From the NCBI GenBank assembly GCA_036262475.1, contig DATAIY010000474.1, positions 1 through 31,743 on the forward strand: 31,743 nt of DNA, in the 5' to 3' direction. The notes beneath the pieces were generated by a model that ran no database searches, was not told the DNA's origin, and was given only the letters and a program-made list of their open reading frames with translations. Numbering within the stretch: the stretch's first letter is position 1; each line of letters begins with the position of its first letter. The DNA is from Solirubrobacterales bacterium (GTDB lineage: Bacteria > Actinomycetota > Thermoleophilia > Solirubrobacterales > 70-9). Both the position numbers and the translations under genes were made by a program. This document shows, one piece after another, positions 15,081 through 19,436 of this stretch.

Positions 15081-15166
15081 ACACGGGTGATTCTGCGCCT
15101 CGTCATCCATCCACGCATCCGCAGGAAACCGCAGCGCCGGCGGGGCGGGTTACGGAGGGGGCGTCT

Positions 15167-15350
15167 CGCATCGGTCCCGAGATCGACCTCCGCGTCCGGA
15201 TCTGCGCCTGACTTGGCCGCGACGACGAGCGCTGCATAGCTACAGGTCCCGCCGTCGAGCTGCCTCGTCCGAAATCAAGAGGGTCGGCTCCCCTGCCGAC
15301 TACAGGAGCTGAAGATGCCCAACGAATTCCAGCGCTACCGCGTCCTCTGA
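15167..15350 (+). pseudogene. Possible decayed 3' gene remnant
   Basis: GC3-rich pieces across frames: RIGPEIDLRVRICA*LGRDDERCIATGPAVEL / SEIKRVGSPADY / QELKMPNEFQRYRVL*. Family not recognised. Confidence 0.25.
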
Positions 15351-15378
15351 CCACTCGTCCCCGCGATGGCGATGGTGA

Positions 15379-15894
15379 GGGGTCGGCCTCGAGCACGACC
15401 TGATCGTGGTCCTCGGGCTCAGGATCGCCGTTTCCCTGCCAGAGGACCTTCGAGCCGACCTTCCAGTCGGAGTCGAGGCGGGCGCCCCAGTAGCGCTGCG
15501 TGAAGGCGGGATCGATGAGGGCGGCCCAGAGCTCCTCCGGCGTGGTCTTGATGTAGGTGACGTAGACGAATTCGGTGGGCCCCATCTGGTTCTCCCCCAG
15601 TGCGTGTTTGAGGGCGTTCAATGCCGCCGCCCTGGCGACGTCGTACTGGTCGATCCAGCGCTCAACGATCTGACCGATCGGCGCCGCGTTCAGGTGGTGC
15701 AGCTTCTGGCGCCCTCGGCGCCGCGTCGTCACCAGGCCCGCGGCCTCGAGCACCGTCAGGTGCTTGCTGACCCACTGGCGGGCCATCTCGAGCCCCTCGC
15801 AGAGCTCGCCCAAGCTCTGCCCGTTGCTCCGGTTGAGCCGGCCGAGCAGCAGGCGCCTCGACGGGTCGGCGATGGCTTTGAAGACGTCTTTCAG
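15379..15894 (-). pseudogene. ArsR/SmtB HTH-SRPBCC(AHSA1) fusion regulator, truncated at both ends
   Basis: DVFKAIADPSRRLLL...SLGELC...VSKHLTVLEAAGLV, then TEFVYVTYIKTTPEELWAALIDP.FT.RYW. Similarity stops after DQVVLEADP. No start codon before DVFKA. Confidence 0.75.
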
Positions 15895-16098
15895 GGGCTG
15901 GACCTGCTCGCCGATCTGGACGAGCGGCTGGACGGCCACCATCGCCTCCACGCGACGCGTGCCCACCTGCTGGAGATGTCAGGGGGGATGGACGCCGCGA
16001 TCGCCGACTACCGGGTCGCCGCCGATCGCACCAACAGCCTCCCCGAGCAGCATTACCTGACTGCGCAGGCGGCGCGGCTGAACGAGCGCCAGGGCTGA
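15895..16098 (+). pseudogene. 3' fragment of an ECF42-type sigma factor (TPR tail)
   Basis: GLDLLADLDERLDGHHRLHATRAHLLEMSGGMDAAIADYRVAADRTNSLPEQHYLTAQAARL* parallels the C-terminus of the full-length sigma at 18261-19436 (GLAIVDGL...[12 protein letters not shown]...AYRRAL...ERRLLERRL). Confidence 0.7.
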
Positions 16099-16117: not shown

Positions 16118-16147
16118 GCTGTCGAATTCGCCGCTTCCCGTTCGTCT
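16118..16147 (+). promoter_or_regulatory. ECF42-type promoter (TGTCGAA-N16-CGTC)
   Basis: GCTGTCGAATTCG-ccgcttcccg-TTCGTCT. Both boxes and the spacing match the element at 17842. Lies 32 nt upstream of ATG 16180. Confidence 0.75.
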
Positions 16148-16179
16148 GAAGGGAGACCGCTCCAGAGGAAGGGTGACCG

Positions 16180-16599
16180 ATGCTCTCCGTCAACAGCTAT
16201 CCCCATGAGTACGTCGAGGAATGCCGCGCGAAGATCGCCCGGCAGACCTCCGCCTACGAGAAGCTGTCCGCCGGGGCGAGCGGCACCCCAGCGGAGTCCG
16301 CGCTGGCGGAGTTCGAACCGCTTTTCTTCAACCACATGGTCCTGGCGCTGGACCATTACTTCCTCCATCGCGCCCGTGGCATGGAGGGCAAGGATGGAAA
16401 TCCTCTCAACGAGGTCCGGGTTCTCTGCGATTCGCTGATGGAGAACGACGGCAAGCTGGCCGCCAACAAGACGATCAAGCTCGACCCCGCCAAGTCGCTG
16501 CTTCAGTACGGGGCCGGCGATGAGATCGCCATCGACGAAGCGAACTTCAACCTCCTGTCGAAGGCCTTCCTCGACGAAATCGAGAGCAAGTACCCCTAG
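16180..16599 (+). CDS. Conserved-looking actinobacterial hypothetical protein
   Basis: 139-aa ORF with SD GAGGAAGG and clean GC3 bias. Motifs FFNHMVLALDHYFLHR, EGKDGNPLNEVRVLC, KTIKL. Confidence 0.85.
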   Translation: MLSVNSYPHEYVEECRAKIARQTSAYEKLSAGASGTPAESALAEFEPLFFNHMVLALDHYFLHRARGMEGKDGNPLNEVRVLCDSLMENDGKLAANKTIKLDPAKSLLQYGAGDEIAIDEANFNLLSKAFLDEIESKYP

Positions 16600-16602
16600 C
16601 AG

Positions 16603-17022
16603 ATGGGTCAGGAGCAGATCAGGCTGGCGCCGATCGGCCGGGTCGAGTCGCAGCTCGACGATCTCCCAGCAGCGCCTCAGCAGGGCGACGAGGGTGCGCC
16701 GTACGCGTGGCTCGTCCTCGAGGCGGAGGTGGCCGGGGGCCTTGGCGGCATTGGGGCCGGCGACGACGTCCTCGTCTTCACCTGGCTCGACCGCGCCCGG
16801 CGCGACCTGCTGGCAGTCCATCCGCGCGGCGACGCGTCGCGACCGCTTCAGGGCGTGTTCGCCAACCGCTCTCCCGACCGGCCCAACCCGATCGGCCTGC
16901 ACCGAGTGAGGGTGGCGCCGGTCGACCGCAACCGGCTGCTGGTCGAAGGCCTCGAGGCGCTGGACGGGACGCCGATCCTCGACCTGGAGCCGGTGCTGAG
17001 CGCCGAGGTCGACGAGCGCTGA
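16603..17022 (+). CDS. trmO: TrmO/TsaA (YaeB N-terminal) SAM-binding domain protein, single domain
   Basis: LAPIGRVES, VLVFTWLDRA, VHPRGD, GVFANRSPDRPNPIGLH, LEALDGTPILDLEP. Confidence 0.8.
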   Translation: MGQEQIRLAPIGRVESQLDDLPAAPQQGDEGAPYAWLVLEAEVAGGLGGIGAGDDVLVFTWLDRARRDLLAVHPRGDASRPLQGVFANRSPDRPNPIGLHRVRVAPVDRNRLLVEGLEALDGTPILDLEPVLSAEVDER

Positions 17023-17055
17023 GCCGGGCCGACCACCCACTAGCCTCTCCTGGCG

Positions 17056-17817
17056 ATGACCGGGACCGCTCTCACCTACGAGCCGCTGGGCGGCGATCGC
17101 CATCGGCACGGCGACGACCTCGTCCACGAGCACCCGCACGCCGGTCCGCACAGCCACGAGCCCGACCATCCGGCTCACGACCATCACCACCACGGCGGCC
17201 ACGGTCACTCGCACGGCCTCGTCGACGAGAGCATCAAACGCTCGCGCGAGGGACTGCGGGCGGTCGGCCTCTCGCTCGCCGTCCTCGCCGTCGCCGCCGC
17301 CGCCCAGACCGCGATCTTCCTCGCCAGCGGCAGCGTCGCCCTGCTAGCCGACCTGATCCACAACTTCGGCGACGCGGGCACCGCGATCCCACTCGGAGCC
17401 GCCTTCCTGCTGCGCTCGGGTCGGGCCGAGCGGGTGGCCGGGCTGTTCGTCGTCGCCGTCATCTTCTTCTCCGCCTGCGTCGCCGGATTCGAGGCGATCT
17501 CGCGGCTGATCCATCCCCAGACCCCCACCCACCTCATCGCCCTGGCCGCCGCCGGCCTGATCGGGTTCGCCGGCAACTGGCTCGCGGCCGGGATCCGGAC
17601 CCGGGCCGGCAACCGCCTCGACAGCCCGGCGCTCCTCGCCGACGGCAACCACGCCCGCGCCGACTCCTACGTCAGCCTCGCGGTTATCGCCAGCGCCGCC
17701 GTTGTCGCGATCGGGGTGCCCGTCGCCGACCCGCTGATCGGCCTCGCAATCACCGCGGTGATCCTCAAGATCACCTGGGACTCCTGGGGCACGGTGCGGG
17801 GGCACCGCCACCGCTAG
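17056..17817 (+). CDS. Cation diffusion facilitator with His-rich N-terminus and no C-terminal domain
   Basis: Six TM segments; site-A motifs HNFGD (TM2) and HARAD (TM5); N-terminal HEHPH...HDHHHHGGHGHSHG. Protein ends about 10 aa after TM6. Confidence 0.88.
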   Translation: MTGTALTYEPLGGDRHRHGDDLVHEHPHAGPHSHEPDHPAHDHHHHGGHGHSHGLVDESIKRSREGLRAVGLSLAVLAVAAAAQTAIFLASGSVALLADLIHNFGDAGTAIPLGAAFLLRSGRAERVAGLFVVAVIFFSACVAGFEAISRLIHPQTPTHLIALAAAGLIGFAGNWLAAGIRTRAGNRLDSPALLADGNHARADSYVSLAVIASAAVVAIGVPVADPLIGLAITAVILKITWDSWGTVRGHRHR

Positions 17818-17841
17818 GGCTGCGTGGGGAGTTCGCGGGCG

Positions 17842-17871
17842 GCTGTCGAATTCGGGGCGGCCCATTCGTCT
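17842..17871 (+). promoter_or_regulatory. ECF42-type promoter upstream of the DGPF-sigma operon
   Basis: GCTGTCGAATTCG-gggcggccca-TTCGTCT, 36 nt before ATG 17908. This is the expected autoregulatory position for ECF42. Confidence 0.8.
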
Positions 17872-17907
17872 CTGATGCGACCACTCTCCAAACGACAAGG
17901 AGAAGCG

Positions 17908-18264
17908 ATGAGATACATGCTGCTGATTCACCAGGGCACCACCCCGACCCCCGGCTCGCCGGAGTGGGACAGCCTTGCCGAGGACGAGCAGCGGGCCGTC
18001 TACGCCGACTACCAGGGGATCAACGAAACCCCCGGCGTCAGCCCCGGCCAGCAGCTGCAGCCCCCCGAGGCGGCGACCACGGTGCGGGTGCAGGGCGGCG
18101 AGACGCTGGTCACCGACGGCCCCTTCGTCGAGACCAAGGAGGCACTCGGCGGCTGGCTGATGTTCGAGGCCGGTGACCTCGACGCCGCGATCGAACTCGC
18201 CGCGCGGATCCCGGCGGCGCGCATGGGCGGGGCGATCGAGGTGCGCCCGCTGGTGGAGCGGTAG
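17908..18264 (+). CDS. YciI/DGPF family protein
   Basis: [54 protein letters not shown]. Confidence 0.92.
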
Positions 18265-19436
18265 CGATCCTCGACCAGGTCTACCGCGACGAGTGGGGAC
18301 GCGTCCTCGCTGCGACGATCGGCTTCCTCGGCGACTTCGACCTCGCCGAGGAAGCCACGCAGGAGGCCTTCGCGGTCGCCGCCGAGCGCTGGCCTCGCGA
18401 CGGAGTCCCGACCAGCCCCGGCACCTGGCTGGTGACGACGGCGCGCAACCGGGCGATCGACCGCATCCGCCGCGACCGCACGCTGGCGGCGAAGACCCGC
18501 CAGCTCGAGCTGCCCGAGGCGACTGAGGACGAGATGGACGCGACGACGTTTCCAGACGAACGGCTCGAGCTCGTCTTCACCTGCTGCCACCCGGCGCTCG
18601 CGACCGAGGCGCAGGTGGCGCTCACCCTGCGGACCCTCGGCGGCCTCAGCACCAGCGAGATCGCCCGCGCCTTCCTGGTCGCCGAGCCGACGATGGCGCA
18701 GCGGCTGGTGCGGGCGAAACGCAAGATCAAGGCCGCCGGGATCCCCTTCCGGGTGCCCCCCGACCACCTGCTGCCCGACCGGCTCACCGCCGTGCTCGCG
18801 GTCGTCTACCTGATCTTCAACGAGGGCTACGGCCGCGGGGGCGGTGAGCTGGAGGCCGAGGCGCTGCGGCTCGGGTGGGCACTCGCCGAGCTGATGCCCG
18901 ACGAGCCGGAGGCGCACGGCCTGCTGGCGATGATGCTCCTGCTCGACGCCCGCCGCGCGGCGCGGTTCCGCGACGGCGACCTGGTCCTGCTCGGCGACCA
19001 GGACCGCTCGCTCTGGGACGCGGCGCAGATCGCCACCGGCCGGGCGACGCTCGACCGGGCCCTGGCTCTGCACGGCCGCGGTCCCTACGTGATCCAGGCG
19101 GCGATCGCCTCCCTGCACGCCGACGAGCCCCGCGACTGGCCGCAAATCGCCGCCCTCTACGGCGAGCTGTCCCGCCTCACCGACTCGCCCGTCGTCGAGC
19201 TGAACCGGGCCGTAGCCGTCGCCGAGGCCGAGGGGCCGGAGGCGGGGCTGGCGATCGTCGACGGCCTGGCGCTCGAGGACTACCGGTACCTGCATTCGAC
19301 CCGCGGGGAGCTGCTGCGCCGCCTCGACCGGACCGAGGAGGCCCGCGGCGCATACCGCCGGGCCCTGGCTCTCGTCCACGACGAAGCCGAGCGGCGCCTG
19401 CTCGAACGGCGTTTGTCGGAGCTGGATGAGCTGTAG
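18261..19436 (+). CDS. ECF42-type RNA polymerase sigma factor with DUF6596/TPR extension; start codon non-canonical
   Basis: In frame from 18261: [15 protein letters not shown]...[13 protein letters not shown]...WPRDGVP...[12 protein letters not shown]...[15 protein letters not shown]...LRTLGGL...[13 protein letters not shown]...DQDRSLWD...[10 protein letters not shown]...[11 protein letters not shown]. The junction reads GTAG, not GTGA. Confidence 0.88.

Follow-up and report, generated by a model that had tools for sequence, protein, structure and literature searches.

The stretch of DNA considered here (the window, that is, the whole 31,743 nt of contig DATAIY010000474.1, assembly GCA_036262475.1) has a GC content of 69% and belongs to a soil metagenome-assembled genome (MAG; G000) of a Solirubrobacterales bacterium, which comprises 2.52 Mb in 489 contigs and is 87% complete. 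It carries an operon of a YCII/DGPF gene and a gene for an extracytoplasmic function (ECF) sigma factor of group ECF42, preceded on the same strand by genes for a conserved protein of an unnamed family (p139), a TrmO-like protein and a CDF transporter (Table 1). Two matching promoter-like sites, P1 before p139 and P2 before the sigma operon, are the subject of this report. Genomes, loci and contigs are labelled with G-, L- and C-numbers, respectively. The arrangement is not an assembly artefact, because L132, a Logan assembly made independently from a different sequencing run, reproduces it with P1 and P2 unchanged, and 60-87% of the region's sampled words are present in 20 soil and sediment DNA runs from 9 studies.

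Table 1. Features around P1 and P2 and further predicted sites of the same MAG (positions are those of the window unless a contig is named)
Feature	Position	Strand	Remarks
ArsR/SmtB helix-turn-helix protein fused to AHSA1/SRPBCC	15103..15942	-	PF12840, PF01022, PF08327, NF033788; divergent from P1
ECF42-B remnant, ~51 C-terminal codons left of a deleted second ECF42 paralog	15940..16098	+	Homology to congeners
P1, predicted ECF42-dependent promoter	16118..16147	+	-35 TGTCGA 16120-16125; -10 CGTC 16143-16146
p139, 139-amino-acid conserved protein	16180..16599	+	Unnamed family; predicted to be served directly by P1
TrmO/TsaA N-terminal-domain-only protein, 139 amino acids	16603..17022	+	3 nt past p139 stop
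CDF metal-efflux transporter, 253 amino acids	17056..17817	+	33 nt past TrmO-like gene; PF01545, TIGR01297
P2, predicted ECF42-dependent autoregulatory promoter	17842..17871	+	-35 17844-17849; -10 17867-17870
YCII/DGPF protein, first gene of sigma operon	17908..18264	+	PF03795 3.1e-14
ECF42 sigma factor (sigma2, sigma4, DUF6596, TPR extension)	18267..19436	+	Apparent start ATC
Third predicted site	C191:329-355, duplicated on C178		Before RibD_C-family gene; position weight matrix (PWM)
Fourth predicted site	C445:21735-21761		Before 79-codon open reading frame (ORF); PWM

A preliminary description of this DNA had claimed two matching ECF42-type promoters, and the match proved exact. GCTGTCGAATTCG lies at 16118-16130 and again at 17842-17854, and TTCGTCT follows at 16141-16147 and 17865-17871 after a 10-nt spacer in both cases; all 20 box positions and the spacing are identical, and five of the ten spacer bases agree. 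The sequences flanking P1 and P2 are unrelated on both sides, and the likeness is therefore confined to the would-be -35 and -10 elements. A pattern search with up to three mismatches returned P1 and P2 alone from the window, where 0.02 matches would be expected, and none of 100 shuffles gave two or more. Matches to the bare core TGTCGA-N15-19-CGTC are not very rare (4 in the window versus 0.94 expected, and 119 in the whole genome); the evidence from the core by itself is therefore weak, and the signal resides in the extended boxes. Both sites have the TGTCG(A/G) element, 17-nt spacer and CGTC element of ECF42-dependent promoters and face a nearby target, each lying 60-64 nt 5' of an ATG with a ribosome-binding site before it. 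For P1, the transcription start site (TSS) is expected near 16153-16156. P2 precedes the DGPF-ECF42 operon as first described, and the motif is also found at the orthologous position before the DGPF-sigma operons of five congener loci (L082, L087, L088, L090 and L097), which implies autoregulation.

The sigma factor encoded behind P2 has the features that define group ECF42. Matches to PF04542 and PF08281, together with TIGR02937 above its cut-off, cover the ECF core regions 2 and 4, and the long C-terminal extension contains DUF6596 (PF20239, 4e-28) and TPR-like repeats at residues ~347-417 (TPR_2, TPR_21 and TPR_12, below gathering cut-offs). The YCII gene upstream ends 2 nt before the sigma frame. 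The group also lacks a nearby anti-sigma factor; here, the downstream ORFs (19.5-20 kb) had no Pfam match, and the next gene encodes a CoA-transferase on the other strand. No ATG, GTG or TTG is available to the sigma gene between the in-frame stop at 18174-18176 and position 18432. Its conserved N-terminus starts at an ATC two bases past the DGPF stop (TAG-CG-ATC), with GGAG nine bases upstream, and this junction is kept in four orthologs of the genus (L082, L087, L090 and L097); in more distant orthologs (among L004, L015 and L024), a GTG lies two codons further upstream or the genes overlap in GTGA. This layout suggests AUC initiation, or termination-reinitiation, that would keep sigma levels low.

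To define the regulon beyond the window, we used a PWM trained on 22 sites from other genomes only, located upstream of p139 homologs or DGPF genes. The genome-wide motif scan that had been proposed for this locus ranked P1 first (44.9 bits) and P2 second (38.9 bits) among 5.0 million positions of the MAG, and only four distinct sites exceeded 12 bits, the other two being those on C191 and C445. The RibD_C gene behind the C191 site (C191:329-983, L100) is frameshifted near L100:650, as a pseudogene or through an assembly error; an ATC start considered for this gene was rejected because a TTG start is available. In the ORF behind the C445 site (C445:21500-21770; L101:4450-4770, - strand), a DGPF N-terminus (MRFMMLMYPG...) is joined to an ECF42-like C-terminal tail, the tail being recognised by eye only, and the ORF would be what a deletion left of a third DGPF-ECF42 operon. 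The only DUF6596 sigma match and the only YCII match of the MAG both lie in the window. The regulon predicted for the MAG holds more non-DGPF promoters than DGPF promoters.

Across the genus, the pattern TGTCGAWY-N12-RWTCGTC occurred 73 times in 36 of the 41 genomes surveyed for it, and the reversed control gave no occurrence. Behind the genus sites that were fetched, the genes were YCII paralogs or RibD_C genes, about a dozen each as judged by N-terminal sequence, and a Pfam check of downstream genes assigned 10/10 to YCII or RibD_C (five each). RibD_C ('dihydrofolate reductase-like') genes, confirmed by Pfam in six cases among L100 and L102-L128, match YCII genes in frequency behind the ECF42 motif in the genus. 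DUF6596 sigmas were present in 59 of 61 genus genomes, the set that was surveyed for sigma and p139. For uncultured soil actinobacteria, a promoter PWM of this kind can define complete mini-regulons, which hold 1-5 sites in each genome.

The gene nearest to P1 encodes a protein for which no Pfam or NCBIfam match was obtained; a profile search found no PDB sequence match, and Foldseek found no PDB fold match at E<=0.001. The AlphaFold2 model (predicted local distance difference test score, 92.9) has four helices, and p139 is accordingly modelled as a small soluble helical protein. The family gave 981 matches among 1,004 scored candidates in the 90% database and 1,227 clusters at 50% identity (E<=1e-3), and its members are almost always single-domain proteins of about 135-145 amino acids; when 10 longer members were scanned for fusions, one match was found, to a TetR N-terminal domain, which may be a merged gene call. 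Conservation is strongest at F-E-P-x-F-F-N and H-R-x-R-x-x-E-x-K-D-G-N-P-L-N-E-V-R, with invariant R64, R66, E69, K71, D72, N77, E78 and R80. A protein atlas lead that p139 is HEPN-like was rejected: the atlas similarity was only 0.79 and the TM score 0.55, with no significant score, and the HEPN R-x4-6-H motif is absent from the invariant residues, the His before R64 not being one of them. Of the 61 genomes of the genus, only 7 yielded p139; since p139 is rare where the sigma factor is nearly universal, it behaves as an optional output rather than an obligatory partner.

Whether homologs of the 139-amino-acid gene carry the motif was a check proposed beforehand, and we performed it on the 80 best genomic loci of p139 homologs (1.43 Mb, both strands searched). 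The strict core motif was found directly 5' of p139 in 13 of the 80 loci, 35-109 nt before the start codon, whereas the remaining locus background predicts about 0.06 matches in 80 upstream windows. Extended boxes (TGTCGAT-type -35, A/T-TCGTC -10) were present in 11 of those 13, at 35-83 nt and mostly at 60-75 nt, the distance for P1 being 60 nt. In total, the strict motif had 27 matches in these loci, and besides the 13 before p139, five preceded a DGPF gene (L010, L015, L024, L040 and L056), four of them in DGPF-ECF42-p139 operons. Further motif-bearing cases are a distant paralog from the same genus (L094) and, on Logan contig L134, a homolog with 65% identity. The claim that the 139-amino-acid gene is a new ECF42 output is thereby strengthened as a prediction, the motif being recurrent before its homologs.

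In addition, p139 adjoins an ECF42 gene in 11 other loci, ten of them co-oriented; the layouts are DGPF-ECF42-p139 (six), DGPF-p139-ECF42 (two), p139-ECF42 (one), DGPF-ECF42-TrmO_N-p139 (one, L026) and convergent (one). An ECF41-like sigma gene adjoins p139 in nine more loci, directly upstream on the same strand in four and divergent in five. Five of these ECF41-like neighbours were scanned by Pfam (region 2 in 5/5, region 4 in 4/5 and a weak SnoaL_2 match in 2/5), and the other four were recognised by tblastn. About 41% of the 80 p139 loci are thus tied to a C-terminally extended ECF sigma factor (ECF42 or ECF41-like). Common to the divergent ECF41-like/p139 pairs (L035, L046, L055, L071 (Ilumatobacteraceae) and L077 (Chloroflexia); motif alone in L062 and L073) is the quasi-palindrome CGTCATAGCACTGACG, which lies some 60-100 nt 5' of the p139 start codon and resolves into overlapping face-to-face promoters GT(T/C)AC-N16/17-CGTCA, one per strand. 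A quick tree of p139 was poorly resolved (7/78 branches well supported) and was used for the window clade and for the pair L071/L074 only; in the window's clade, leaving the window gene aside, 8/11 members are ECF42-linked. As judged from these linkages, p139 is a recurrent, optional output of C-terminally extended ECF sigmas, both ECF42 and ECF41-like. It is unlikely that p139 is not only an output but also a signal-input component that binds the stimulus or the TPR/SnoaL extension of ECF42/ECF41-type sigmas; such a role would explain the DGPF-p139-sigma operons and the adjacency to two 'one-component' sigma groups.

We consider it very likely that the ECF42 sigma factor of the window reads both P1 and P2, with P2 autoregulatory and P1 driving p139. 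This scheme takes sigma dependence, TSS positions, operon extent and the role of p139 from the motif statistics, conservation and gene linkage that were directly observed. RNA polymerase with the window sigma would recognise the -35 element (C)TGTCGA(A/T)TTCG and the -10 element (G/A)TTCGTC(T), TGTCGA and CGTC being 17 nt apart. P2 would drive the YCII/DGPF and sigma genes, giving positive autoregulation; P1 would drive p139, probably also the TrmO_N-only and CDF genes, and may read through into the P2 operon. The C191 and C445 sites would complete the predicted regulon of the genome.

The gene order p139, TrmO-like, CDF after P1 is as first described, separated by gaps of 3 and 33 nt, and the search for a terminator between these three genes and the following genes was negative; P1 therefore probably also drives the TrmO-like and CDF genes. 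Of the ECF42 outputs originally proposed, p139 stands, and for the TrmO-like and CDF genes membership is read from spacing only. The TrmO-like protein matches PF01980 (3.7e-21) and TIGR00104 (97.3 bits versus a cut-off of 93.25). It thus has the N-terminal domain, a beta-barrel in TrmO/TsaA tRNA m6t6A methyltransferases, but comprises only 139 residues and has no C-terminal domain; its gene is probably co-transcribed with p139. The CDF protein matches PF01545 at residues 72-242 and TIGR01297 above the cut-off, has a His-rich N-terminus, and ends at residue 253, shortly past the membrane domain, without a match to the usual cytoplasmic C-terminal (ZT_dimer) domain; its gene is possibly the last of the P1 unit. 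Sequence from p139 (16305-16597), from the CDF gene and from the DGPF/sigma junction is present in RNA-library contigs.

Several observations weigh against the scheme or narrow it, and some of them concern the extent of the P1 transcript. It is possible, though somewhat doubtful, that P1 is a real promoter which serves only p139, or p139 and the TrmO-like gene, with CDF transcribed from a promoter of its own, for example a metal-responsive one, located within or behind the TrmO-like gene; CDF would then be no ECF42 output. In many motif-bearing loci, a long ORF on the opposite strand seems to follow p139 (raw ORF calls in GC-rich DNA), so that neither the TrmO-like nor the CDF gene is a conserved partner of p139 in an operon. 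In other members of the genus, CDF orthologs have different neighbours, among them an upstream gene in L084 that looks, by eye only, like a divergent ArsR/SmtB-type regulator, and TrmO_N-like genes in G002 (G002:C63:23892-26468) and G007 (G007:C1:1367480-1370054) directly follow other DGPF-ECF42 operons as convergent neighbours that are not co-transcribed. A separate CDF promoter is disfavoured by the short gap of 33 nt, in which no terminator was found, and by G048, where a p139 remnant of 31 codons lies directly before CDF-P2-DGPF-ECF42. It is also disfavoured by a contig from an RNA library that spans 17651-17910 with one mismatch and so joins the end of the CDF gene, P2 and the beginning of the DGPF gene. 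The RNA-library contigs are low-depth, unstranded Logan contigs, may be DNA-tainted and carry no 5'-end information, and so they indicate presence at best. In addition, the ArsR-AHSA1 gene 176 nt upstream of P1 might also control P1, a second ECF42 gene or further sites may be missed in a MAG that is only 87% complete, and a sigma gene that lacks a canonical start codon has an uncertain expression level.

The scheme in which the window sigma reads P1 and P2 has two further competitors. The motif could be read by another CGTC-using sigma factor, such as an ECF41-like one, or by several sigmas, as ECF41 promoters (TGTCACA-N16-CGTC) resemble it and, among close p139 homologs, some are linked to ECF41-like sigmas and others to ECF42, L071 and L074 (one ECF41-linked, one ECF42-linked) being well-supported sisters in the quick tree. 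We regard this as highly unlikely: the motif stands before the DGPF-ECF42 operons of the window, of the five congener loci and of four of the p139-containing operons among the 80 loci, its -35 element, TGTCGA with a T-rich tail, and its 17-nt spacer fit the Sinorhizobium meliloti ECF42 sites and not the ECF41 site, and the ECF41-linked p139 genes have a distinct GT(C/T)AC-type -35 element. Hardest to credit is that P1 has no function and is a fossil, left over or copied from P2 in the rearrangements that destroyed the ECF42-B operon. The region has indeed been rearranged, as the ECF42-B remnant and the p139 remnant of G048 attest, and P1 and P2 share a lineage-specific A (GAATTC) at a position where most sites have T. 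However, the P1/P2 likeness does not extend into the flanks, the ECF42-B promoter of congeners differs in sequence, with CGAC as -10 element, and in unrelated genomes the motif lies equally far from the start codon of p139 homologs.

The paralogous ECF42 remnant that had been reported just before P1 was confirmed: it has no Pfam match on its own, its 51 codons are 84% identical at the amino acid level to a full-length gene in G013 (L098) and 82% identical to one in G006 (L099), and the homology ends at the stop codon. In congeners, the ECF42-B operon promoter is TGTCGA-N17-CGAC upstream of its DGPF gene (DGPF-B). The promoter-like site TGTCGAGAACGCGG(C/G)CGCGGCTCCGAC, with CGAC in place of CGTC, was seen there in L098, L099 and L082, and the p139 loci L052 and L076 also have CGAC, which may be a paralog-specific -10 preference. 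No copy of the ECF42-B promoter was found in the MAG. That P1 is the old promoter of the deleted ECF42-B operon was considered and rejected, as the congener promoter has CGAC and precedes DGPF. The order in G005 is DGPF-B, CDF and then P2-DGPF-ECF42, and the CDF-P2-DGPF-ECF42 adjacency is kept in G005 and G048; the layout with an intact p139 was found, among the genomes searched, only in the window and in the Logan contigs L132 and L133. From these comparisons, the region reads as a decaying cluster of ECF42 operons, and the remnant together with the C445 relic points to loss of ECF42 paralogs in this genome.

The locus had also been expected to hint at the stimulus of the ECF42 group, and no such hint was delivered; the CDF and ArsR neighbours suggest metal stress weakly. 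In two proteobacterial loci, an ArsR-family gene lies directly 5' of p139 on the same strand (L045:1708-2136 and L051:4647-4988), and a repressor of the ArsR type may regulate the p139 family in addition to, or in place of, the sigma factor. The TrmO_N-only gene recurs near ECF42 operons, and its orientation is not fixed.

Promoters of the S. meliloti ECF42 sigma factor RpoE10, mapped by 5' rapid amplification of cDNA ends or RNA-seq, read TGTCGG-N17-CGTC, with TTCGTC in 2/3 (PMC6180224, Table 1), and RpoE10 drives SRPBCC-like and glyoxalase-like genes (PMC6180224). The window system resembles RpoE10 in the YCII gene upstream of sigma, in the 17-nt spacing and in a small regulon with non-YCII genes; it differs in that the RpoE10 targets do not include p139 or RibD_C, in that the S. 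meliloti -35 element ends in G whereas that of the window ends in A followed by a T-rich tail, and in that autoregulation was not seen on RpoE10 overexpression (PMC6180224). As in the Streptomyces venezuelae ECF42 sigmas SVEN_0747, SVEN_4377 and SVEN_7131, the sigma factor has a C-terminal extension with TPR and no anti-sigma factor; in those proteins, the extension is about 200 amino acids long and is reported to be needed for activity. DGPF genes are reportedly the neighbours and main targets of the S. venezuelae ECF42 sigmas, in work by Liu, Pinto and Mascher from 2018. Unlike S. venezuelae, the genome studied here has one intact ECF42 gene and two relics.

ECF41 and ECF42 are among the largest ECF groups, with more than 10,000 sequences each. 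ECF41 sigmas (SnoaL_2/NTF2 extension; TGTCACA-N16-CGTC, for example S. meliloti RpoE9) are a second point of comparison, as p139 homologs adjoin ECF41-like sigmas too; the window sigma differs from them by its DUF6596/TPR extension in place of SnoaL_2 and by its -35 element. ECF56 of S. venezuelae and other Actinobacteria likewise has a C-terminal extension and a small, highly conserved, promoter-defined regulon (bioRxiv 10.1101/2020.01.30.927608), which comprises small enzymes including dihydrofolate-reductase-like and deaminase-reductase proteins (bioRxiv 10.1101/2020.01.30.927608). Unlike in the window, the ECF56 promoter is CGATGAGTT-N14/15-GTC and the extension is inhibitory (bioRxiv 10.1101/2020.01.30.927608).

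ECF42 promoters, the DGPF linkage and the autoregulatory layout were already established. Because non-DGPF targets of ECF42 are known from S. meliloti and RibD_C is routine in the genus, p139 counts as a newly predicted regulon member within a known kind of system. The novelty lies in the unnamed, widespread p139 family as a recurrent ECF42/ECF41-linked gene, which may already figure as a neighbour in earlier ECF42 literature, and in the regulon definition in an uncultured genus. The gain is incremental, a refinement of a known regulatory scheme. In Actinomycetota, Chloroflexota and some Pseudomonadota, ECF42 or ECF41-like sigmas would recurrently control p139, either through a promoter of the gene itself or because it belongs to a sigma operon, and p139 offers one more conserved output for biochemistry beside the YCII, RibD_C, glyoxalase and SRPBCC proteins.

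Two minor observations concern other members of the p139 family. Near-identical p139 genes (tree branches <0.15) were found in L003, L006, L014, L031, L038 and L060, where no sigma linkage was seen; their hosts are Symbiobacteriaceae, Methylococcales, Blastocatellia and Anaerolineae MAGs, and most of these genes have in common the upstream leader ...AAGACACTA(C/T)AGG.... Near-identity across such distant MAGs, together with the common leader, suggests that the gene has spread horizontally in recent times, perhaps carried by a mobile element. Finally, in an Acidimicrobiia MAG (L032:5429-5845), a YjbR-family gene overlaps the stop of a motif-bearing p139 gene and is reported here as a putatively co-transcribed small protein gene.

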